Notes: generated by a model from the sequence alone, not told the origin. A stretch of DNA of 51,861 bases from an uncultured Victivallales bacterium (GCA_964544115.1 CAZJBP010000002.1:1-51861), one strand, 5' to 3'; shown: positions 4,245 through 35,787, counted from the first letter of the stretch. Numbers and translations are program-made.

Positions 4245-7200
4245 ATGCTGAAGCGAACCTCTGCGCCAGGTTTCGCCGTCTTGAAGTGCCGCTTACTTGC
4301 CTTGAGTGCGGTGGTCGGTTTCGGTCTGCCCGCGGCCGCCGCCAATCCGGACGGTCCGCTGCGGGTAGAGGTGATCGCGGCCTATAACCTCGTGGTCGAT
4401 TCGAATGTCGAGTCGCCCTCGACCTATGCGCCCAGGGCGGCCTACCTGGGGGCGAAGATATGGAACGACGGAGGGAACACGCTAACGAACGTAGTCGCTT
4501 ACATCGGCAACTACATTAATGGGGTTAGCGACACGCCGGGCACCTATCCCACAAACCGGCATTTGGCCTATCCGTCGATCGTGGGCCCGCTCACGAACGG
4601 CACGTTCGCGCTCACCCATGAAGGCGGCGACGCCGGCCTGGCTGATGCGACCCGCCCCCTCGGGCCGATTGCTCCGGGACATTACACGACGGTCTACTGG
4701 CTGATCAGCTACCCCAACGTCGACAAGTTCGGCCACGCGGTCTGGGGGCCCAGCGTCAAGCCCGACGATGACCTGTGGCTGGAATACGACGTCTGGGCGA
4801 AGGCTGTCAGCGCCGGCACGCCGCGGGAGGTCGTCCAGACGCGTCGCGTCACGATGCGCAACGAAATCTCAGCGATGGCGAACAAGATCCAGCCCAACGC
4901 GGCCAACAAAGTGCCGCAGGAATACAAGGATCTCCTGAACCTGTACGTGCCGACCTGGACTAACTCGGCGGCCGATGGAACGCCGGGCAGCCGCGTGACG
5001 GCCGAAGGCGTCTGGTACGACCTCGGTAACATCGGGTAGGGCTTCGACAACGACGGCGACCTCGTGCCCGACAAGAACGCGTGGATGCAGCCGGTCGGTG
5101 ATGCAGGCGTGTTCGACTCCTCATGCTTCCGTCTGGTCCACACCTACGCGCTGGTGATCGTGAAACTCAAGACCGGTGGCGAGGACGTGCTGTACGCCGA
5201 GGACCAGCTCTACTTCCAGAACATTCCCGAGAACAACGGCGCCGTCGGCTGGGTGGGCTACGAGTTCGTGCCGCTGCGTGGCGGGTGCTCCAGCGGGCTG
5301 ACCCCGTACCAGGAAGTCGCCTCCGGGTTCGACAACGAGAAATTCAACGGCGACTACGGCGCGGTCCTCGGCGGAAACCTCAGCAGCGCGTCGTCTGCCG
5401 TGGAACTCGTGAAGAGCGCCGACGGCCTAACCGTCCGTCCCGGCGGCACGCTCTGGTACTCGCTGATGTACACGCCGACGCGCGCGACCTTCGCATCCGG
5501 CGTGCCGCTGATGCTGGGAGACCCCGCGGCGGGCGTGCCGGTGGTGATCCAGGATCGGATCCCCGACGGGACGGAGTACGTGGCCAACAGCGCCGCTGTC
5601 AGCAACGATCTGCCCCTTGGCGTCGGCGGTTACACCGTGCTCTACTCGACCAACAGCGCGGTCAGTTGGCAAAGCACCCAACCCTTGCCGGCTTCGGCGG
5701 TGACCGACCTGCAGTGGTGGCTAACCGACCAGTTGGCCGGCGGCACCACCGGTACCGTCCGCTTTGCCGTGACGGTCAACGCCCCCTTCAACGAGCCCGT
5801 TCCCGAAGTGTCCAACACCGGCTGCCTCAGCTTCGGCAACAACGAGTGCGACACGAACTCCATCGTCCGCACGCCGGTCCTGGGCACCAACGTGCTGGGC
5901 GACCTGGTGTTCAAGGACAACGGCGCAGGCAGCTTCTACGGTAACGGGACGAACAACGCCGGCGAGGCCGGGATCCCCAACATGACCGTCAGCGTCTACT
6001 ACGATGCCAACAGCAACGGCGTCGTCGACGCCGCCGATGTTCTGTTTGGCGTCACGAACACAGCGGCCAACGGCGGGTACCTGTTCGACGGCCTGCCCGA
6101 CGGCGCGTACGTCGTCGTGGTGGACACGGCCGATCCCGACCTGCCGTTCGGCTACTCGCCCACCACACCCATCACGCACGCCATCGCGCTCGACCCCCTT
6201 CACGCCACGACCGCCCCTGTCACCAACCTCGCCGCCGATTTCGGCTTCGCGCCGGCGCTGACGCTGGATAAGTCGCTGGTCGGTTCGGGGCCGGTCTACG
6301 AGGGCCGCCAGGCCACGTTCAGGCTGGCGGTCACCAACCAGTTCTTCGGTAACGGCAGCGGCTCGGGCAGTCCCATCACGGTCTTCGCGTGGCCGCGGGC
6401 ACTGGGACCCGACGACAACAAAAAGTGGACCAGTCGAGAGAACGCATACGGTGTCGAAGAGTTGGACAGTCTGTATGCGTCGACCGCGATCGCCGCCGCC
6501 GCCGACACACTGTCGGTGGCCAACTACCAGGTGGGTGTGCAGAGTGGATCGCCCACCCAGGTCGTGGTCGTGGTTCCCATCGACCTGACGTACACGGGGT
6601 ACGATACGAGTAAGACCCCGGGAAAATTCACCGTGGCGGTGGAGTACAGCGGCGTGGCGGTGACGTCCCGTGTCTACAACCTGCAGTTGCTGCCAAACGG
6701 GCCTTCCCAGTTGGAGATCGACATCACCAGTCGCAGAACGTGGCAGTGGTCGGACTTCAACTCGGCAACTTTACTGAACATCAATCTGATTGCCGATAAG
6801 GGATTGGACAAGCCGACCACTAGCCTGATGAAGCTCAACTCCGCCGGTTTCCGTATTAAGTCGTCGGTCCGCTACACATCGGCCACAGTCAGCAACACGC
6901 TCTATCCCGTCCCGCTGAATGACCGCTATGATGCAGACCTGTTGCGTTTCGTCTCCGCGACGCCGCCCGTGAACACGGCGACCACCGGCGGGGTGGCGCC
7001 GCTGGAGGGCGCGTTGTACTGGGACAACATCGGGCCGATCAAGCCGGGTGGAACGGGCGTGGTCTACGTCACGTTCGACGTGCTGCAGCCGCCGGGCAAC
7101 CTGTCCACGACGGTCACGAATGTGGCGATCGTCAACAGTGCGACCTTCAGCAATGGTATCCCGGCCAACGTGGCCACGGACCTGGTGTCGGTCGTTGTGC

Positions 7201-10200
7201 AGCCGACGGCGACCCTCGGCGACTACGTCTGGCGCGACGTTGACGCCGACGGCGCGCAGGACACCAACGAGGTCGGTATCGCCAATGTCAAGGTGGTGCT
7301 GACGCCGCCGGCCGGTTCGCCGGTCACCAACACGACCGACAGCGCCGGCCATTACCTCTTCACGGGCCTCACGGCCACAAACTACACCGTAACCGTCCTG
7401 ACCACCACGTTACCCTCGGCCACCTTCACGAACACGTATGACCGCGACGGCAACAAGAACAACCAGACGTCGGTCACGATCACCAACGTGCCCGGGTTGG
7501 GGCCTCGGGACGTGCTGACGGCCGATTTTGGGTACTCGCTCCCGTCGATCATCAGCGGGATCGTGTGGCACGACCTGGACCGCGATCACGCGACGGCGCC
7601 CGAGAGCGGCGAGGACCGGTTGTCCGGGGTCACGGTGGGGCTCTACACAACCGGTGGCGCGTTCATCGCGAACACCACCACCGACGTCAACGGTTACTTT
7701 AAGTTCACGGGCTCCTACGTCGGCCAGTACGAAGTCCGCGTCACGACCAACAGCGGGGCCATGGCGAGCAGCACGTGGACACGATCCTACGACACGGACG
7801 GCACCAACTCGGCCAACAAGGTCACTACGACCAGTATCGTGGCCGGCGGGTCGGCCACCGCCGACTTCAGCTACTACAAGACTGGCGCCTACACCATCGG
7901 CGACACCGTCTACTTCGATGTGGACGGCGATGGGACGCAGGACGCCGGTGAAGAGGGCATCCCCAACGTAACCGTTTACCTTTACGAGGACGCGAACGGC
8001 AACGGCGTGGTCGACGTCGGAACGGATGCCCTGCTGGGGGGCCAATCCACATCGGCAAACGGCACGTACCTCTACACGAGTTGGCCGACAGGCAACTACA
8101 TCGTGGTGGTTGACCGGACCGATCCCGACCTGCCCGCCGGCGCCGTCTGCACAGGCGACCCCGACGCCGTCAAGGACGGCCGCAGCAAGCTGACCCTGAC
8201 GGCGACCAACCTGGCCCAGGACTTCGGTTTCTACCTGCCCGCTGCCGGCCGCATCGGCGATACGGTCTGGCGTGACCTGAACGGCGACGGCGTGCAATCG
8301 GGTCCGAATGAGACCGGCATGGCCTCGGTGACCGTGTGGTTGTATGCGGACCTGAGCGGCGACGGAGTCTTCACGAACCTGTACGCGACGACTACCGATG
8401 CCTCGGGAAAGTACCTGTTCACCGGCCTGCCAGACGGCGACTACCGTGTGGTGGTGAACGCGGCCGACAGCGACATTCCCGAGGACTTCTTCGGTGTGAC
8501 CTACGTGCCCAGCACGCCGCCGACGCACCCGGTCACGCTCAGCGGGGGCAACACGTACCTGGCCGCCGACTTCGGGTTCTCGCCCCTGGGGGCGATTGGC
8601 GACACGATCTTCTGGGACCTCAACGGAAACGGCGATCAGGACTGGAACGAACCGGGCATCGCCAACCAGACCGTGGAGCTGTATGTCGACGCCAATGACA
8701 ACGGCAAGTACGACGCAGGCACCGACACCTACGTCATGAACACGGTCACCACCCCGAACGGCTACTACCGCTTCGACGGACTGACGGGCAACGTATACGT
8801 GGTGTGGGTGAAGCCCGAGGGCGCGATCACCAACGCCACGCTCACGGCCGACCCGGACACCGACGGGCTGCCCTGCACGCATCCGGACGTCCTGGCTGAC
8901 CCGGTGATCAGCAACAAGTGCGATGGAGCGTACGCGGTGTCGGTGACATGGGGCACCGCCTTCATGGGGGCAGACTTCGGCTACCAGCCCGCGGGCGTGC
9001 TGGGCGACACGGTGTGGTTCGATATCAACACCAACGGCGTGCGCGATGCGTCCGAGTACGGCATTCCCTACATCGACGTGGTGCTCTGGAGCAACGGCAC
9101 GGCGATCGCGACCAACGCGACCGACGCCGACGGTTACTACTACTTCTACGACCTCGTCGACGGCACGTACAAGGTGGTGGTGGCCACGAGCGGCATCAAC
9201 TGGCCGGCCGGCGCGGCGCAGGTCTACGACCCCGACGGCACGAATGACGACCAGGCCGTCGACATCGTGGTCAGCAACCTGCACGTGGTGTCGATTGGGC
9301 CCAACGCCGTGACGAACGATTTCGACGTGGACTTCGGGTACCGGTATGCGGGCTCGAACGTTCTCAGCGGCACGGTTGGCCTGGACGCCCAACCCTACGA
9401 CGGCCTGCTGAACGGCACGAACCCCTCGGGCGTGGGGTCGGGCGAGGCCGCATTCTCGAACGTGACAGTCTACGCGTGGCTGTGGCGTGACGACGGCGAC
9501 GGAATCCGCGAAGCGAACGAGCTGACCCTCGTCGCCAGCACGACCACGGCGATCAACGGAGACTACAGCTTCGTTGGACTGCCGTCGGGTGGAAGCAGCA
9601 ACTTCTACATCATCGCAGTGTCGGCCCCGCGCGACGAGCTGGCCCTGACGACGACGAACGGATCCACGGCGGCCGACAAGGTCGTGGTGACGTCGAACGC
9701 CCTCGGCTATGTCCAGTCGGCATTACAGGTGGTGGCGATCGCCACGGTCACGACGAATATCGACTTCGCCTTCGCCCTGTCGGCGGCGTACGACTTCGGC
9801 GATTTGCCCGACACGTACAGCACCACGCTGCAAGCCTCCCCGCAGGGCGCGCGGCACCGCATTCCGGGGACGCCCGCGCTCTACCTAGGTGCCGCCATCG
9901 ACGCGGAACCCAACGGCCAGCCAACGGTCACTGCGACCGGCGACGATCTCAACGGCTCCACTCCGGACGACGAAGACGGCGTGCTCCCGGTTGGCGTCTG
10001 GTCCAATGGCGCCAGCGGTGGCGTGGTGCGTGTGACGGTTGGCGCCGGCTCGGGCTGGCTGGTGGGGTGGATGGATTTTAACCAGGGCGGCACCTTCACC
10101 GGTTCCGGCGAGATGATCGTCAACCAGGCCGTCTCCAGCACCGGCGGCGTGAGTGGCGTCTACACGATCGTCTTCTCGATTCCAACCAACGGCATCTCGG

Positions 10201-11327
10201 CGGCCACCAACACGGTCCTGAACGCCCGCTTCCGCTTGTTCCCGTCGCAGCCGAGCATCCCCGCGATCGCCTACTCGGGGCTGTCGAACGACGGCGAGGT
10301 TGAGGACTACCAGTGGCGGTTCGCTGCCGTCGGTGACTACGTCTGGGATGATGCGAACGCCAACGGGGAGCCCGACGGCGGCGAGAGCCCCATTCCCGGC
10401 GTCACCGTGTTCGTGGACCTGAACACCAACGGGGTGCTCGATGCCGGCGAGCCGTCGACGGTGACGGCGGGCGACGGGTCCTACCACATCGGCGGATTCC
10501 AGGACGGCTTGCACCGCGTGGCGATCGACACGAACTCGCTGCCGGCGGGCAGCGTTCCGACCTATGACGTTGACGGCACGCCTGACTGGCGCGGAACCTT
10601 CACGATCAGCGGCACGACCTCCCGCAGCGACGTGGACTTCGGAATCAAACTGCCCCTTGAGACGCTGGCGGTGATTACCGACGTCCGGGCGGTCACCCGA
10701 GATGGGAAGACGTGGGTGCAGTGGCGCGCGGGAGCCGAGATCGGCACGCTGGGCTACTGGCTTGAGCGCAAAGCGGTCGACGGCTGGGTTGCGGTCAATG
10801 CGCGGATGTTGCCCGCGAAACTCATGCAGCCGCTGCCGCGAAGCTACGAGCTGACCGATGCGGCCGCGGTGGCTGGCGGCACGTACACCTACCGGCTGGT
10901 GGAGCTGGAGAGCACCGGGCGGCGCGTAGTGCACGGGCCGTACACGGTCACCGTCGACGGCGCGGGCTACGGCTTTGATGCCTGGGCGGCGGGGATCGCG
11001 TGGGGTGGGGCGGCCGCGGGGCGCGGCGACGACCCTGACGGCGACCGGCTGACCAACTTTGAGGAGTTCCTGGCGGGCACCGACCCGCTGGCGCAGAACT
11101 CGGTCCTTCGGATCACGCACATGCGCCTTCGCGACGGCCTGGTTGTCCTGAGCTGGCGCAGCGCCGACGGCCGCGTGTACGCGGTCGAGGTGGGCCGGCG
11201 TCCGAACGGCCCGTTCCTCCCGGTCGCGGGCGGTCTGCCGGCCACGCCGCCGGTCAACACCTTCGCCTGCCCGCTTGGGGCGGATGGCGAGCCGATGTAC
11301 TACCGCGTGATCGTGTCCGAGCCGTAG
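4245..11327 (+). pseudogene. Large secreted/surface protein (SdrD B-like repeats, DUF11-like, GEVED, C-terminal sorting-like domain) interrupted by one in-frame TAG at 5037-5039
   Basis: ORFs 4212-5039 and 5064-11327 are in the same frame, separated only by TAG (LGNIG*GFDNDGDLVPD); N-terminal signal peptide; repeated GDxVWxDxNGxG motifs; GEVEDY motif; DPDGD motif. Confidence 0.8.
11109..11327 (+). repeat. Copy 1 of 219-nt duplicated 3' gene end (copy 2 at 12490-12708)
   Basis: 11250-11326 and 12631-12707 differ at only 2 of 77 nt. Confidence 0.9.
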
Positions 11328-27935: not shown

Positions 27936-28907
27936 TTATCGCTCCTTGTATCCGTCCCTGTTGGTGAAGTACACGCGCGCCACGTGGCGTACGACGCGGT
28001 CCGCGACAAAGTTGGTGTAAGACAACCCCCGCAGCTGCAGGTCGGCCGCCTGGCGCGCATCCCGGTCGTTGAGCAGCTCGATGCAGACGTCCACGTAGCC
28101 GGGAAGCCGGTTGGTGTAGGCGGGGGTGCCGCTGTAGTAATCCCGGATGAGTTGTCCGTTCGGCTTGCGGGCGAACACGGCGAAGCCGGCCACGTTCTTG
28201 GCGATGAAGCGGCTGGTGCCGGGACGGCCGACGCCGCCATCCGCCGTATTCTTGTACCAGTTCGGGTTGAAATAGCAGTGGCTTGACGCGCTGGCCGCGT
28301 CGCTGAGCGCGCTGGAGTAATACCCCCGCATCAGCTCGTAGCGCTTGCTCCCGGCCGGGTTCTCCCGGACATAGTAAAACACCTCCCGTGCCGCCCGGTT
28401 TCCGTCGCTCGAATCGTTCTCGATCGAGACGAAGCAGGTTTCGTCGTTCTCAAAGCCATAGGATGTGAGGCTGTAGCGGTCCTTCTGGGCGATGAACGTG
28501 AGCGTCTTGTCCGCCACCGCGTACTGCAGGTCGTGCGCGATCATGCTCAGCGCGGCACGGCCAGCCAGGTTGTTGTCCGACCGGTTGGTGCCCAGCGTCC
28601 AGGCGCGGTCGCTTTCGGTGAAGATGCGGCCCATGATGGTGACGATGATGACCAGGATCGTAACCGCGGCGAGCAGCTCGATGAGGGTGAACGCCGCGCG
28701 GCCGAGGGCGCGCAGCGAGATCCCTCGCTGCGCTCGGGATGACAAGCCAAGCGAATGAACGGCTGGACCTCGCTGCGCTCGGGATGACAAACCGGCCGCA
28801 TGGCCTTGCTGCGCTCGGGACACGTGCAGCAGGCTCGTAGCGCCTGCTGTACAGCGGGGGCTACGAACCCGCTGGGTTCTTGCCGATGGGCGATTGCCGA
28901 ATCTCAT
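27936..28907 (-). CDS. Prepilin-type (GspJ/PilW-like) protein with a REP-expanded 72-aa leader
   Basis: A|FTLIELLAAVTILVII; GGAGGA SD 7 nt before ATG 28907. Confidence 0.82.
   Translation of the reverse strand: MRFGNRPSARTQRVRSPRCTAGATSLLHVSRAQQGHAAGLSSRAQRGPAVHSLGLSSRAQRGISLRALGRAAFTLIELLAAVTILVIIVTIMGRIFTESDRAWTLGTNRSDNNLAGRAALSMIAHDLQYAVADKTLTFIAQKDRYSLTSYGFENDETCFVSIENDSSDGNRAAREVFYYVRENPAGSKRYELMRGYYSSALSDAASASSHCYFNPNWYKNTADGGVGRPGTSRFIAKNVAGFAVFARKPNGQLIRDYYSGTPAYTNRLPGYVDVCIELLNDRDARQAADLQLRGLSYTNFVADRVVRHVARVYFTNRDGYKER
28717..28823 (-). repeat. REP-like cluster: full copy 28717-28744, partial copies 28768-28789 and 28804-28823
   Basis: GAGATCCCTCGCTGCGCTCGGGATGACA and truncated tandem copies. 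Confidence 0.92.
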
Positions 28908-28941
28908 GTGCCGATCCTCCATGGGCCGGGTGGCGGCCGCC

Positions 28942-29700
28942 TCACAGTCCGCCGGACATCGGGTATTCCGTCGAGAACGTCAGCGCCTTATCGAGTGGTG
29001 TCACCCCGTACTGCCCTTCCCAGATGTTCATCCGCACCCGCATCTTGCGGTTGGTCCAGACGACCGTCGGCGACACCGGCGGATAAGAGACCACCATGAT
29101 GACCGGGTCGACCTTGATCTTGTAGCGGAGCGAGTGGTTGACCACGCCGGTCAGTGCCGACAGTCGCAGATCGAAATTGGTGAACACTGCGGTGTGCGGC
29201 CCACCGGCGCCCCACACGCGGACGTAGTTGGTGGAGGGCGGGGACCAGGGGCCGCCGGGATAACTCACCTCGTACTGCCAGAGCGGCCCGCCGGCCACCG
29301 GCAATTGGATGCCCCCGCTGCTGAAGCCCGTCCAGAAGGTCAGCCACGCCGCAGAACCCGCTTCAATGGCCTGCTCGTTGCGCGTGCGCAGGCTGTTGAA
29401 GACGTCGTCGGCAAAAATGGCGGCGCGGGTCTCGGACACGGCCTTGGCGCTGGAGTCAAGCCCCGTGCCGATCAGCGCGAACGCGGCGAGGACACCGACG
29501 GCCACGACGACCACCGACAGCGCGACCTCGACGAGCGTGAAGCCGCCGCGAGATCCCTCGCTGCGCTCGGGATGACAGGATGGCCCAACCGGTCGCTGGG
29601 CCTCGCTGCGCCCGGAGTAGCGCTGACCGCCGCCTTTGTCATCCCGAACGCAGTGAGGGATCTCCGTATTCCGCCTGAAAGTTGTGCGTGGCGTATGCAT
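28942..29700 (-). CDS. Prepilin-type (GspI/PilV-like) protein with a REP-expanded 53-aa leader
   Basis: G|FTLVEVALSVVVVAVG; leader contains EIPHCVRDD and CHPERSEGS. Confidence 0.82.
   Translation of the reverse strand: MHTPRTTFRRNTEIPHCVRDDKGGGQRYSGRSEAQRPVGPSCHPERSEGSRGGFTLVEVALSVVVVAVGVLAAFALIGTGLDSSAKAVSETRAAIFADDVFNSLRTRNEQAIEAGSAAWLTFWTGFSSGGIQLPVAGGPLWQYEVSYPGGPWSPPSTNYVRVWGAGGPHTAVFTNFDLRLSALTGVVNHSLRYKIKVDPVIMVVSYPPVSPTVVWTNRKMRVRMNIWEGQYGVTPLDKALTFSTEYPMSGGL
29550..29664. repeat. REP-like cluster: full 29550-29577, partial 29601-29620, inverted full 29637-29664
   Basis: Inverted pair of the 28-bp consensus with an internal partial copy. Confidence 0.92.
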
Positions 29701-29704
29701 GGCT

Positions 29705-30412
29705 TTACTCGCTCTTCTGAATCGTTCCGGTCAATCGAAAGACCTGGACCGTCGATGAGATGAAGTTGGCCGCGCGGCCCGCTTCGTAGAGGACGATCGT
29801 TCTCTGGTCTCCAGTCCAGTCGGCGGTTGAGGCAACGTCAATCGCGCTGCCGTCGAGTCTGAAGCCGATCGACCAGGGCCCGAACACCGGCGTGCCGTAG
29901 GCCGGGCTATTCGACAGGACAACCCCCTCGGCGAAGAAATTGGTGGTTCCCATGACGCCGTCGACGGCATTGCTCAGGTAGTAATAGCTTCGTTGGGGCG
30001 GGGATCCGGGCGCCGCGAGAGGGGCCGGCACGTTGCCGTAAACCATGTAGGTGCGCACACGGTGCGTGACGGTATGCTGGCGAGTCTGGTTGAACGCCGA
30101 GCGGAACACCAGGGTTGAGGCGCGCATTTTACTCCCGCGACCGAGGTCAACGAAGGCGAACAGGGCCATGCCCATGAGCAGCATCATGATCGCGAGGACC
30201 ATGAGGATTTCGATCAGGGTGAAGCCCTGGCGGAGATCCCTCGCTGCGCTCGGGATGACACGACTGGCGATGGAGCGGCTGGGCCTCGCTGCGCTCGGGA
30301 TGACACGACCGGCGAACGAGCGGCTGGGCCTCGCTGCGCTCGGGATGACACGCGGCCGCCCGCCTGTCATCCCGAACGAAGTGAGGGATCTCCTCGGTTG
30401 TGCGGTCCTCAT
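29705..30412 (-). CDS. Prepilin-type (GspH/FimT-like) protein with a REP-expanded ~63-aa leader
   Basis: G|FTLIEILMVLAIM; IGFRLDGS; leader has three VIPSAAR; TGATG overlap with the upstream gene (alternative start 30424). Confidence 0.82.
   Translation of the reverse strand: MRTAQPRRSLTSFGMTGGRPRVIPSAARPSRSFAGRVIPSAARPSRSIASRVIPSAARDLRQGFTLIEILMVLAIMMLLMGMALFAFVDLGRGSKMRASTLVFRSAFNQTRQHTVTHRVRTYMVYGNVPAPLAAPGSPPQRSYYYLSNAVDGVMGTTNFFAEGVVLSNSPAYGTPVFGPWSIGFRLDGSAIDVASTADWTGDQRTIVLYEAGRAANFISSTVQVFRLTGTIQKSE
30233..30392. repeat. REP-like cluster: full 30233-30260, partials 30284-30305 and 30329-30350, inverted full 30365-30392
   Basis: 45-bp periodic tandem plus an inverted partner. Confidence 0.93.
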
Positions 30413-31068
30413 CACGGTTTCCATGAATAGACCCTCGTTTCTTCGCTGGCGGGGTCGCTACCCCAGGACATGACGCACACGTTCTCCCGGACAACGTTGG
30501 TGTCTACGTTGTAGGTGCCCGAAGGGAGGGTGATCGAAGCGACCAGATGTGTCGTTCCGTCGCCATTCTCATCCATGGAGATCGCGAACGGGTTGCCCCA
30601 GGGATCGAGAAGGACGCCATCGGCGTCAAGTTCCATATCCTTGAGTTCAAAGAAGACCGTGTGGCGCGGGTTGTTGGTCAGTTTGCTGATCACGGTTTCC
30701 GGGGCAACAATCTGGTCGTTGAGTCCCTGGGTCTGTCCGGGCAGTTTGCCGTAGGTTCCGCGGTAGTTCTTTGCGGCTTCCACCACGGCCAGGGCCGTGG
30801 ACCTTGCCTGCTTGCGCTTGGCCGCCTGGCGCACCGCGTGGGCGGCGGGCAGGAGCATGGCCGCGAGGATCGCGATGATGGCGACGACGATGAGGAGCTC
30901 CAGGAGCGTGAAACCGCGCCGCGCCGCGAGATCCCTCGCTGCGCTCGGGATGACATGACGGCCTGACCGTCCGCTGGGCCTCACGTGGCGGGGGGTGACC
31001 AGAAGACTGCGCGCGCTGCTGCTCCTGTCATCCCGAGCGTAGCGAGGGATCTCGTCATGCTCTATCAT
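30412..31068 (-). CDS. Prepilin-type protein with a REP-expanded 52-aa leader
   Basis: G|FTLLELLIVVAIIAIL; LDPWGNP; ATGA overlap; leader has EIPRYARDD and VIPSAARDL. Confidence 0.85.
   Translation of the reverse strand: MIEHDEIPRYARDDRSSSARSLLVTPRHVRPSGRSGRHVIPSAARDLAARRGFTLLELLIVVAIIAILAAMLLPAAHAVRQAAKRKQARSTALAVVEAAKNYRGTYGKLPGQTQGLNDQIVAPETVISKLTNNPRHTVFFELKDMELDADGVLLDPWGNPFAISMDENGDGTTHLVASITLPSGTYNVDTNVVRENVCVMSWGSDPASEETRVYSWKP
30928..31053. repeat. REP-like cluster: full 30928-30955, degenerate 30979-31000, inverted full 31026-31053
   Basis: Inverted pair of the 28-bp consensus. Confidence 0.92.
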
Positions 31069-31655
31069 TGCCAGCTCCCGATGATGTAGTTGGGGTCGTC
31101 GGGCTCCAGGTCGGGGTTGACCGTCCAGACCACCACCGTGCGCTGGACGTTGTTCGTCAGCGGCGACTCCACCGACACGGGCGTCGATGGGGATCCGGGG
31201 ATGATATTGTTGTAGTCCATGTCGAACATGGAGTAGTAGAAGCGATCCCTGCCGGCCGCGTCGTCCATCTCGGCATCCGTCAGGTCGGTGTCCGCCCAGG
31301 GCGTCACCGGCGAGCCGCTGGCGTTAAGCCGCTTGAACTCAAGGAAGCGCAGGCGGCGCGGGTTGTTCGCCGCGTCGGCTTCGCCGCGCGTCAGCAGGGC
31401 GCCCACGGCGCCCTGGATGCGCACGAAGTCCGAGGTGTAAGTCAGCATCGGCGGCCATTTCTCGTACTCGGAGTAGTACTGTCGCCACGCCGCCTCGATC
31501 TGCTTGACCTCGGTGCGGGCTGCCGCGACCTTCGCGTGTTTGCGGACCATGGCCACGGCGGGTAGCAGCAGGGCCGCCAGCATCAGCACGATCGCGATGA
31601 CGATGAGCATCTCAATCAGAGTGAAGCCAGTGTGGCGTGTCGCTCGCATAGTCAT
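31065..31655 (-). CDS. Prepilin-type protein (short leader)
   Basis: MTMRATRHTG|FTLIEMLIVIAI; paralog of 31652-32212. Confidence 0.85.
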   Translation of the reverse strand: MTMRATRHTGFTLIEMLIVIAIVLMLAALLLPAVAMVRKHAKVAAARTEVKQIEAAWRQYYSEYEKWPPMLTYTSDFVRIQGAVGALLTRGEADAANNPRRLRFLEFKRLNASGSPVTPWADTDLTDAEMDDAAGRDRFYYSMFDMDYNNIIPGSPSTPVSVESPLTNNVQRTVVVWTVNPDLEPDDPNYIIGSWQ

Positions 31656-32212
31656 TCCTGCCAGTTTCCGATGATCCATCTGTCACTGCCCTCGTCGGCG
31701 TCGTCATTGACCGTCCACACGATCACGCTCTGGTGCACTGCGCCCGTGGTCGGCATGTCCCACGCGGGTGCGCCGGTGGTGGTGGCCGGAATCGTGTTGT
31801 CGAAGTTCGCGTCGAATATGGCGTAGTAGTAATGCTTCTCCGGCGTGGCGGCGTCGTCGACCTCGGGGTTGCCCCAGGGGCTGATGGGGTTCGTGCTGGT
31901 GTTGAAGCGCTTGAAATTCATGAACCGCATCCGGCGCGGATTGTCTGCGGTGAGGGCACCCGCCGTGAGGGCCTGGGCAACGGCGCCGGAGATGCGCACC
32001 GGCGCCTCGGTGGTCACAAAGGAGGGCCAGCGCTGGTACTCGGCGTAGTAGTGCTTCCAGGCGGCGGTAATGTTCTCGATTTCGGACTTGGCGCTCACTT
32101 TGCGGGCGTATGCGCGGGCCATTCCGACGGCCGGAATCAGCATCCCTGCCAGCACCATGATGATGCTGATCACGATCAGCATCTCGATCAGCGTAAAGCC
32201 TCGTCGGTTCAT
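31652..32212 (-). CDS. Prepilin-type protein (short leader)
   Basis: MNRRG|FTLIEMLIVISII. Confidence 0.88.
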   Translation of the reverse strand: MNRRGFTLIEMLIVISIIMVLAGMLIPAVGMARAYARKVSAKSEIENITAAWKHYYAEYQRWPSFVTTEAPVRISGAVAQALTAGALTADNPRRMRFMNFKRFNTSTNPISPWGNPEVDDAATPEKHYYYAIFDANFDNTIPATTTGAPAWDMPTTGAVHQSVIVWTVNDDADEGSDRWIIGNWQE

Positions 32213-32631
32213 CAGAACTTCCCTGCGATGATGTTGTCCGCGTCCGCCTCAGGCGGCGGCGACTCCGCCCGGTCGGTGCCCTTCGAGTAGAGTTTGTAGG
32301 ACTTGCGATTGGCGGAGGGGATGTAGCGATAGGCTTGACCCCACGGGTCGAGGAAGGTGAAGCCGTCGCGGATGTAGGTCACCAGGTTGTTCGTCCAGGT
32401 GGGCCCGGGGGGAAGGGTGCCGACATCCATCTGGTAGTTGACCAGCGCCGTGCGGATCGTCTCGATGTCCGCCTTGGTCTTGGCCTCCAGGTTGGCCCGG
32501 TGCGCGTAGGCCACCACGCCCAGAATCATGGCCATCAGGATGCCAATGATGAGGATCACGGCCAGCAATTCAATGAGCGTGAAGCCCGACGCTGACCGAT
32601 TCACGCCCCGCACTGAACCTCGCGCTGCCAT
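32212..32631 (-). CDS. GspG-like major pseudopilin
   Basis: G|FTLIELLAVILIIGIL; ALVNYQMDVGTLP; LDPWGQAYRY; LYSKG. Confidence 0.85.
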   Translation of the reverse strand: MAARGSVRGVNRSASGFTLIELLAVILIIGILMAMILGVVAYAHRANLEAKTKADIETIRTALVNYQMDVGTLPPGPTWTNNLVTYIRDGFTFLDPWGQAYRYIPSANRKSYKLYSKGTDRAESPPPEADADNIIAGKF

Positions 32632-32716
32632 GCCACACCCCTTCCTTGACGCCCCCACTATAGGATAGGCCGGCGAGCGGAGTCAACGCGGCCACCGTAA
32701 AGATTCAGTAAAGGGT

Positions 32717-32860
32717 GAGATTCCTCACTGCGCTCGGGATGACACGTTCCCGAATGGGGCTTCGCGACGACCATGAGATCCCTCACTGCGTTCGGGATGA
32801 CCAAATCGCCCTTTGGCCGCTCGATCCAGCCGTGTCATCCCGAACGCAGTGAGGGATCTC
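32717..32860. repeat. REP-like triplet downstream of the GIY-YIG gene (32717, 32775, inverted 32833)
   Basis: Three 28-bp copies starting 58 nt apart; the last supplies the GIY-YIG TGA stop. Confidence 0.93.
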
Positions 32861-33200
32861 CCTTGTTCCAGCCCTCGGCCTTGTGCCACCCCTGGGCTGG
32901 CGCCGGGCCCAAGCCAAGGATGGTTTCGCCCAGGTCCGCCCACGCCGGGTTGTCCCGCTCGATCAAGGCCACCTTCTTCTCCCTCCGCCAGCCCTTCAGT
33001 TGCTTCTCCCGCGCGATGGCGTCCCGGATGTCATTAAAACGCCCGAAATACACAAGCCGGCTCAGGTTGTATCGGCAGGTAAATCCGTCGACTTCGGCCG
33101 CACGGTGCTGGGAGACGCGCCGCACAAGGCTGTTGGTCACCCCGACATACAGCGTCGAATGACCTTTGTTGGTCATGATGTAGACGTAGTACTCGGACAT
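32835..33200 (-). CDS. GIY-YIG nuclease family protein (small, stand-alone)
   Basis: YYVYIM...LYVGVT..L.RRVSQH...GFT.RY...LVYF...AIAREKQLKGWRREKKVALIE..NP.W.DL. Confidence 0.93.
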   Translation of the reverse strand: MSEYYVYIMTNKGHSTLYVGVTNSLVRRVSQHRAAEVDGFTCRYNLSRLVYFGRFNDIRDAIAREKQLKGWRREKKVALIERDNPAWADLGETILGLGPAPAQGWHKAEGWNKGDPSLRSG

Positions 33201-33225
33201 GCGACCCCCTTGCGTCCCTGTCGCG

Positions 33226-33376
33226 GAGATCCCTCGCTACGCTCGGGATGACACGCTGCTTGGTCTATGGCGGCGCCCTCTTCCAGATCCCTCGCTGCGC
33301 TCGGGATGACCCTTGCGCCTGTCGCCGTCCGGGGGCCGTTCACGGCCGCCGTCATCCCGAGCGCAGCGAGGGATCT

Positions 33377-33377
<1 letters not shown>
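33226..33377. repeat. REP-like triplet upstream of the GIY-YIG gene (33226, 33284, inverted 33350)
   Basis: Same direct-direct-inverted architecture as the downstream triplet. Confidence 0.93.

Positions 33378-35787
<2,410 letters not shown>

Follow-up and report, generated by a model that had tools for sequence, protein, structure and literature searches.

The window, a stretch of 51,861 nucleotides from an uncultured Victivallales bacterium, carries on its minus strand a small gene for a single-domain GIY-YIG nuclease of 121 residues, enclosed on both sides by copies of a short hairpin repeat. The initial annotation had described a stand-alone gene of this length between two direct-direct-inverted repeat triplets, and the open reading frame, the Pfam match and the positions of a 27-mer (GAGATCCCTCGCTGCGCTCGGGATGAC) agree with that description; the spacings of the low coordinates within the triplets are 58/59 and 58/67, within one base of the 58/58 and 58/66 that it gave. 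The gene also adjoins, as described, a pilin-like operon that holds the other copies, where we found seven more matches to the 27-mer. The main features are listed below.

Upstream neighbour of the nuclease gene: SdiA-regulated-family gene (PF06977, E = 3.5e-61)
33226(+), 33284(+), 33351(-), low coordinates: triplet upstream of the nuclease gene (27-mer matches)
33284-33310 and 33351-33377: two outer upstream units, tags facing each other, forming a 26-bp hairpin
33226..33252, minus strand: unit nearest the start codon, GTCAT tag-first on the coding strand, tag end at 33252, one mismatch
32834..33252, minus strand: minimal tag-to-tag cassette of 419 bp (tag-first unit, 25 nt, gene, inverted unit)
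32835..33200, minus strand: ssn-like gene for the 121-residue single-domain GIY-YIG nuclease (open reading frame and Pfam)
32834..32860, plus strand: unit overlapping the 3' end of the nuclease gene, tag-first on the plus strand, tag end at 32834
32717(+), 32775(+), 32834(-), low coordinates: triplet downstream of the nuclease gene (27-mer matches)
32717-32743 and 32775-32801: two outer downstream units, both tag-first on the minus strand
Downstream neighbour of the nuclease gene, minus strand: T2SS-G/N-methyl pseudopilin gene of the pilin-like operon
30412-31068, 29705-30424, 28942-29700 and 27936-28922, minus strand: unit-bearing pilin-like ORFs, four of seven
31027-31053, 30928-30954: pilin-operon units or half-units, cluster 1
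30366-30392, 30323-30349, 30278-30304, 30233-30259: pilin-operon units or half-units, cluster 2
29638-29664, 29550-29576: pilin-operon units or half-units, cluster 3
28762-28788, 28717-28743: pilin-operon units or half-units, cluster 4

GIY-YIG is the sole Pfam domain of the nuclease (PF01541, E = 2.5e-14, residues 4-75 of 121). In an alignment of 27 homologues, a conserved core of about residues 1-92 is followed by a C-terminal tail of about 30 residues; Y18, R28, H32 and E65 do not vary, conservation of Y7 is at least 90%, and Y7, Y18 and E65 are spaced by 11 and 47 residues. The last residues of the tail (DPSLRSG) and the TGA stop codon are encoded by the 3' repeat unit. No NCBIfam model matched the protein, and its sole PDB match was weak (1zg2, a UPF0213 protein, E = 0.003). 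The genome has one intact copy of the gene. GIY-YIG domains also occur in four other small genes and in a longer open frame, and no repeat unit flanks any of these. RNA-library contigs cover 32894-33288 and 32834-33186, which is a weak hint of transcription only, because DNA can occur in such libraries.

The 27-mer matches the window 13 times at up to three mismatches, and 100 dinucleotide-preserving shuffles of the window gave no match. All 13 copies fall within 28717-33377, six around the nuclease gene and seven in the pilin-like operon. Read tag-first, the unit is (T/C)GTC-ATCCCGAGCGCAGCGAGGGAT-CTC, and GTC is preceded by T in 10 units (TGTC), by C in one (CGTC) and by G in two (GGTC). Its stem spans nine positions: a 5-bp base (ATCCC-N11-GGGAT) that starts with A-T and T-A pairs, G.A/A.G mismatches at positions 6 and 7, and two G-C pairs closed by a 3-nt loop, the whole being followed by the tail CTC. 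Tag and stem thus correspond to the T/CGTC tag and the ATCCC-N11-GGGAT pairing originally proposed. The 5-bp base can be considered real, because compensatory versions of it exist in the same genome and in relatives (ATCCT/AGGAT, ATTCC/GGAAT, ATCTC/GAGAT and ATGCC/GGCAT), one relative (G039) having ATCCT/AGGAT in all but four of its 40 copies. For a lone unit the fold is not better than for shuffled sequence (z = -1.6 and -1.2), and inverted pairs fold as stems of 26-27 bp with z about -9. The outer upstream pair (33284..33377) reaches -72.7 kcal/mol (z = -9.1), and the segment 32772-32863 has z = -9.4. An Rfam search of 28000-34000 at E up to 1 returned no family.

The two units nearest the gene both carry their GTC tags at the outer ends of the cassette, an arrangement that we call tag-outward. 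On the upstream side, the final base of the outer unit is shared with the stop codon (33377-33379) of the SdiA-regulated-family gene that precedes the nuclease gene.

Repeat copies in the genome and in prepilin leaders

The assembly (3.77 Mb, 321 contigs, 97.9% complete) holds 77 copies of the 24-nt core of the repeat at up to four mismatches, on 38 of the 321 contigs, and a reversed-pattern control gave none; the true number is probably higher, since several contigs end in a copy. The 4.7 kb around the nuclease gene contains sixteen of the 77, against an expectation of 0.1 (binomial P = 4e-31). The confinement of copies to 28.7-33.4 kb, as originally described, therefore holds within the window (13 of 13) and fails for the genome, which has 61 further copies on 37 other contigs. 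When copies at up to five mismatches are considered, they form 54 groups: 32 singles, 15 tag-outward dimers and seven tag-inward pairs or larger clusters, six of these seven being in the window. The 15 dimers contain no gene, have start spacings of 51-54 nt and share a conserved spacer of about 25 nt, which, compared by eye, does not resemble the inner ends of the cassette and hence gives no sign of descent by internal deletion.

The pilin-like operon carries ten units or half-units, grouped in four clusters where genes adjoin, and all of them fall within the leader-coding 5' parts of four ORFs. In each of these four, all in-frame start codons are found upstream of the units; the last unit ends 5-22 nt ahead of the G/A-F-T-L cleavage motif, with no in-frame ATG, GTG or TTG in between. 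The start of one of them (30412-31068) overlaps the previous stop codon as ATGA. The implied leaders measure 51-76 residues, and those of the three paralogues free of units 4-24. Expression of the unit-bearing genes would mean that the units are translated and then removed together with the leader, which would suggest a route by which repeats can invade operons without killing genes. The unit itself has a stop codon in only one of its six reading frames. High-GC DNA keeps frames open by chance, a caveat on this reading of the pilin leaders.

Homologues of the nuclease and their flanking units

Among 7813 candidates of similar length, 7801 are relatives of the nuclease at E up to 1e-3, the closest named ones belonging to Kiritimatiellae, Lentisphaerae and 'PVC group' bacteria. 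We analysed the flanks of 82 homologue loci, 80 from named genomes of many phyla and two from relatives, excluding the locus of the window, and counted as a unit any GTCAT that precedes a hairpin whose basal 5 bp pair perfectly. At least one such unit stands beside the gene in 62 of the 82 loci (76%), so homologues do not generally lack repeats, one of the points on which the initial annotation had made its proposal depend. A tag-first unit lies within 160 nt upstream in 42 loci, 48 have an inverted unit at the 3' end or beyond it, and 33 (40%) have both, which form the tag-outward bracket. The opposite orientations are rarer (19 and 20 of 82), and control windows 500 nt further out contained units in 1-2 of 72 and 1-4 of 75 cases. 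The two arms of one gene also match each other: the inverted-repeat score reached 20 or more in 24 of 83 rows, one of which is invalid (the window's own locus, in the wrong orientation), versus none of 83 mismatched pairs (maximum 16). Stems vary widely from locus to locus, with GTCAT and ATC constant. Four alphaproteobacterial/Rickettsiales homologues (L051, L048, L071 and L075), 53-57% identical to the nuclease, are likewise flanked by canonical tagged repeats. The association of nuclease and repeat is thus real and general.

The overlap between gene and repeat is also shared. Of the best 120 homologues, 39 end in a tail encoded by the unit and use the unit's TGA (..PSLRSG, ..PSTSSG, ..PSASSG and similar), and 8 more read through the unit in another frame. 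Residues of the tail that are encoded by the loop cluster on the tree of the domain (9 changes versus a mean of 16.6; none of 1000 shuffles gave 9 or fewer; 35 rows). This clustering indicates joint inheritance rather than co-evolution, since the gene physically includes the terminal unit and related sequences carry the same labels.

A partnership of this kind has been described. Ssn proteins are single-domain GIY-YIG proteins of the cd10448 clade, of about 94 residues and with no added DNA-binding domain, and 71% of their homologues have at least one 'Ssn-related motif' (SRM) nearby, 42% on both sides (Chenal et al., 2025, Nat Commun, PMC11893778). SsnA of N. meningitidis and three other enzymes bind the CGTCAT-hairpin-ATC motif as single-stranded DNA only, and place their cut 5' of the tagged hairpin, a few nucleotides away, with no action on duplex, RNA, the reverse strand or the hairpin itself; mutation of Y6, Y17 or E64 abolishes cleavage by SsnA (PMC11893778). 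The window nuclease resembles them in its single GIY-YIG domain and in the spacing of the catalytic Tyr-Tyr-Glu (Y7/Y18/E65 here, Y6/Y17/E64 there), and its repeat in the succession of (C/T)GTCAT, hairpin and ATC and in bracketing the gene on both sides. A patchy spread across phyla and tens to hundreds of copies clustered near surface-protein genes are common to both as well. The window case differs in its stem, where a tandem G.A/A.G mismatch (CCCGAGC/GCGAGGG) is excluded by the published search string, in the tail of about 30 residues whose last seven codons and stop lie inside the repeat, and in its host, a freshwater PVC-group bacterium.

Our flank counts of 76% and 40% reproduce the published 71% and 42% by a different rule. 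The published degenerate SRM string itself matches none of the 13 window units and 2 of the 143 units beside homologues, and in the whole genome it finds 31 sites versus 29-53 in five simulated genomes, that is, the level of chance. It misses the window units at a single stem position: they have A there, in the G.A mismatch, and the string accepts only C, G or T. In head, hairpin and tail the units otherwise fit. Most units beside homologues begin with ATYCYGAG or a near variant. Since the string misses the commonest repeat type of this branch of the nuclease, published censuses probably undercount the association.

The repeat also belongs with the CGTC/TGTC-tagged palindromes, to which its resemblance had been noted at first; these have been catalogued with A-T and T-A as first stem pairs and were concluded to lack a dedicated transposase, in an article that makes no mention of GIY-YIG (Di Nocera, De Gregorio and Rocco, 2013, BMC Genomics, PMC3733652). 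Similarities include the terminal tag, the A-T and T-A first pairs, frequent inverted dimers, occasional large clusters, intergenic and some intragenic copies, and no tyrosine transposase alongside. The described families have perfect stems of 8-9 bp, loops of 4-5 nt and a CCA tail, whereas the window unit has nine stem positions with two mismatches, a 3-nt loop and CTC.

Taken together, the sequence features indicate that the locus is very probably an Ssn-type nuclease gene with its cognate hairpin repeats ('Ssn-related motifs', CGTC/TGTC-tagged REPs). The initial interpretation finds partial support; in its essentials this nuclease-repeat partnership is already published, and the window adds a further example, whose particulars are the variant repeat, the empty site in relatives described below and the units within pilin leaders; the repeat type or the taxa may already stand in the supplementary catalogues of both papers. 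Our literature searches found no report of a GIY-YIG enzyme as a bacterial transposase, nothing relevant joining GIY-YIG with REP, MITE, inverted, selfish or palindromic repeats in bacteria, nothing relevant on COG2827/YhbQ/UPF0213, and no follow-up work on Ssn beyond Chenal et al. (2025). Prokaryotic stand-alone Slx1-like domains have been treated as mostly vertically inherited, in a study that leaves repeats unmentioned (Dunin-Horkawicz et al., 2006, PMC1564403).

By analogy with the enzymes that have been characterised, the minimal GIY-YIG enzyme of the window would most likely bind the GTCAT-tagged hairpin only when the DNA is single-stranded, and would then cut the hairpin-bearing strand a few nucleotides 5' of the tag; we regard such cleavage of single-stranded DNA by the window protein as likely. 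Because the tags point outward, the minus-strand cut is predicted immediately beyond 33252 and the plus-strand cut immediately beyond 32834. The original idea that the nuclease nicks or cuts the hairpins finds support in that homologues cut beside such hairpins, and needs correction as to the substrate, which for the published enzymes is single-stranded DNA 5' of the tag and not the hairpin or the duplex (PMC11893778). Every distinct pair of nuclease and repeat could also serve as a reagent that cuts single-stranded DNA sequence-specifically.

Possible mobility of the cassette and rival explanations

Gene and repeat are both patchily distributed among relatives. Within 41 genomes (40 relatives and the genome of the window), a close homologue (E up to 1e-10) occurs in three (G000, G025 and G035), and the repeat reaches 10 or more copies in G000 (73), G039 (40) and G035 (15), with 1-2 copies in five genomes and none in 33. 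The genes of G035 and G025 are 60-62% identical to that of the window and stand in a tag-outward bracket, in cassettes of about the same length, each with its own loop variants and in unrelated gene neighbourhoods. G039 has a remnant of the nuclease gene only, its first 26 codons, broken off by another unit. In a sample of 151 high-quality genomes of the phylum, five have 10 or more copies, namely G000 (75), G088 (81), G183 (192), G152 (42) and G157 (27), and the rest have at most one; strong homologues (E of 1e-36 or better) are present in G000, G088 and G183 only, that is, in three of the five repeat-rich genomes versus none of the 146 with at most one copy. No homologue was detected even at E of 0.01 in the other two, G152 (98% complete) and G157 (100% complete). 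The link between gene and repeat is therefore strong and not obligatory: the lack of the gene in repeat-rich genomes, which the initial annotation had named as evidence against its proposal, is seen in two of five, the other three having a strong homologue. Nor is the link obligatory in the published survey, where 81% of repeat-rich genomes carry the gene (PMC11893778).

The cassette itself was checked for presence and absence, as had been suggested, and it is absent from two genomes of other families within the same taxonomic order, G006 and G039, in which the flanking genes are adjacent. There, an SdiA-family homologue is directly followed by a gspG-like pilin gene and further pilin genes (42-44% identity of the flanking proteins), and neither the nuclease gene nor a unit lies between them. 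Because this empty-site comparison spans different families, insertion and loss are indistinguishable at the nucleotide level. Two paralogous cassettes of G183 are about 80% identical from tag to tag, from the first base to the last, and unrelated outside. With a vacant syntenic site and paralogues that are alike only from tag to tag, the cassette comes out as a discrete, insertable unit. Neither the window cassette nor the two G183 paralogues had a detectable target-site duplication.

The vacant site and the paralogue homology are the type of evidence needed to decide on the mobility of Ssn cassettes, which the published work left open, with none shown (PMC11893778). No HUH transposase adjoins the nuclease and its repeats, in keeping with the RAYT-independent system of the initial annotation. 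The similarity to RAYT genes and their REPs that it noted is not new, since Chenal et al. (2025) had called the NTS-ssnA-NTS layout 'identical to' insertion sequences in their Discussion and drawn the RAYT/REP comparison (PMC11893778). As in the REP/REPIN and RAYT systems, a nuclease gene is flanked by short palindromic genome repeats that also form gene-less inverted doublets, and the enzyme class recognises single-strand hairpins; unlike them, the window has a GIY-YIG and not a HUH fold, a GTC and not a GTAG tag, and predicted cuts on opposite strands outside the inverted ends. Mobilisation of REPINs has population-level support (as cited in PMC3733652), whereas Ssn has none. Insertion sequences with MITEs offer another parallel, in the 27-bp terminal inverted repeats around one small gene, the gene-less short derivatives, the syntenic empty site and the paralogue homology ending at the repeats; the window differs from them in that no target-site duplication is seen, only one full copy exists and the dimer spacer is unrelated to the interior.

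On this evidence, we consider that the cassette, on balance, moves or has moved as a unit; it would have entered between the SdiA-regulated-family gene and the pilin-like operon in the lineage of the window, and the same repeat has spread through the genome, to at least 77 sites. It is doubtful that the gene-less units are spread by the nuclease itself, because there is a single gene copy, some repeat-rich genomes are free of the nuclease and no event has been observed. A tentative extension would make the 419-bp cassette an autonomous minimal transposon with a nuclease of 90-120 residues specific to single-stranded DNA, and the single units and 79-nt dimers its non-autonomous derivatives, able to settle even in coding sequence, as in the four prepilin leaders, because they are open in five of six frames. 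If true, Ssn elements would be a new class of bacterial transposon, and this reading would supply the long-missing mobilising enzyme of CGTC-tagged REPs.

Alternatively, the nuclease may belong to a domesticated host system that restricts or trims incoming or replicative single-stranded DNA at the repeats, in the way proposed for natural transformation in Neisseria, the repeats being marks that the host keeps around selected genes (here the pilin-like operon) and that the enzyme does not spread. We hold this to be possible rather than probable: the single gene copy and the ten units in the pilin-like operon beside it would fit, as would the increase of about 5-fold in transformation by repeat-bearing DNA upon knockout of ssnA in N. 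meningitidis and the clustering of repeats near surface-protein genes in that species (PMC11893778), but the gene is patchy (3 of 41 relatives, a strong match in 3 of 151 genomes of the phylum), its neighbourhood differs in each genome and paralogues share the tag-to-tag segment only. Patchiness, varied neighbourhoods and tag-to-tag paralogues are more in line with an element that moves than with a host gene maintained by vertical descent, and the two readings are not mutually exclusive. A homing-type element would turn the repeats into targets: the nuclease would cleave tag-outward dimers that lack a gene, and repair would copy the gene into them, as with free-standing homing endonucleases. 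Many GIY-YIG enzymes are indeed homing endonucleases (PMC1564403) and the 15 dimers have the geometry of the bracket; however, their conserved 25-nt spacer is unlike the inner ends of the cassette, the gene has one copy despite 15 potential targets, and the published enzymes cut outside the tag and not between units (PMC11893778), which together make homing improbable.

Less probable still is a reading in which another enzyme, or recombination, disperses the repeats as ordinary REP-like RNA or terminator elements, and the nuclease gene hitch-hikes between them. Such elements would account for the high stability of inverted pairs, for units at gene junctions of an operon and for the two repeat-rich genomes without the nuclease, and the genome does contain one clear Y1_Tnp (HUH transposase) gene (contig C56, E = 1.2e-21). 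That contig, however, holds no copy of the repeat, the oriented bracket recurs at 33 of 82 loci in many phyla versus 1-4 in control windows, and homologues bind and cut such units in vitro and are inactive on RNA (PMC11893778).

Joints skipping 361-484 nt in two DNA runs of other studies were considered as cassette-less alleles and rejected: their sides of 26-29 letters enclose 15-22 other letters, and they are gene-less dimers from elsewhere in the genome aligned to the flanking units, not excisions. The cassette is present in both of these runs, because one contig in each spans 32835-34400. The stretch is contained in lake and freshwater metagenomes of several studies, whose contigs break at units.

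Repeat units within the pilin-like genes

Copies of the 27-nt GTC-tagged repeat unit also lie inside pilin-like reading frames of the window, and some units depart from the standard form:

27936-31068, four pilin-like ORFs with internal repeat units
30278-30349 and 28762-28788, variant repeat units with a 45-nt period

The units fall in the leader-coding 5' parts of the four prepilin-like genes. In each of these genes, the stretch from the last unit to the G/A-F-T-L cleavage motif contains no start codon. Leaders of 51-76 residues are implied, in contrast to 4-24 residues in three unit-free paralogues. In the variant units, the first half of the stem has been swapped, with GCTGGGCC or GCTGGACC standing in place of GAGATCC, so that the 5-bp stem cannot form. 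These variants look like a tandem duplication of the unit together with its spacer.

Reduced and interrupted nuclease homologues

Three homologues of the 121-aa GIY-YIG nuclease gene in other repeat-rich genomes are incomplete or interrupted:

G039:C72:24490-24880, truncated nuclease gene (L107)
G088:C1:127678-127968, homologue with two in-frame TAG stops (L116)
G183:C20:20577-20858, homologue with one in-frame TAG stop (L114)

Only the first 26 codons of L107 remain, in a relative carrying 40 repeat copies, and a further unit connects this remnant with the beginning of the gene that follows. The TAG-interrupted L116 and L114 are likely decaying copies.

Gene-less dimers and further small GIY-YIG genes of the window's own genome

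Many 79-nt tag-outward dimers, gene-less inverted pairs of units with the GTC tags at their outer ends, are enclosed by simple repeats, which are of AGCGTT type at one end of the dimer and of GAGGAC type at the opposite end (G000 contigs C114, C127, C58, C59, C165, C203 and others). Contig C114 carries two dimer copies 249 nt apart, suggestive of a larger composite repeat.

Outside the window, the same assembly (G000) has further small GIY-YIG genes, among them:

C33 10119-10313, minus strand, second gene (region 9900-10440)
C123 63-275, plus strand, third gene (region 1-425)
C18, fourth gene (region 4876-5400)

The C33 gene has one copy of an 80-nt module on each side (4 mismatches between the two); this module consists of the 5' half of a tRNA-Leu whose anticodon loop bears a two-hairpin insert, and the true tRNA-Leu(UAA) gene directly adjoins the arrangement (C33:9900-10440). 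A perfect 55-nt direct repeat, with no further occurrence elsewhere in the assembly, flanks the C123 gene on both sides, its end overlapping the start codon. A tRNA-Asn(GTT) gene lies ~250 nt from the C18 gene.
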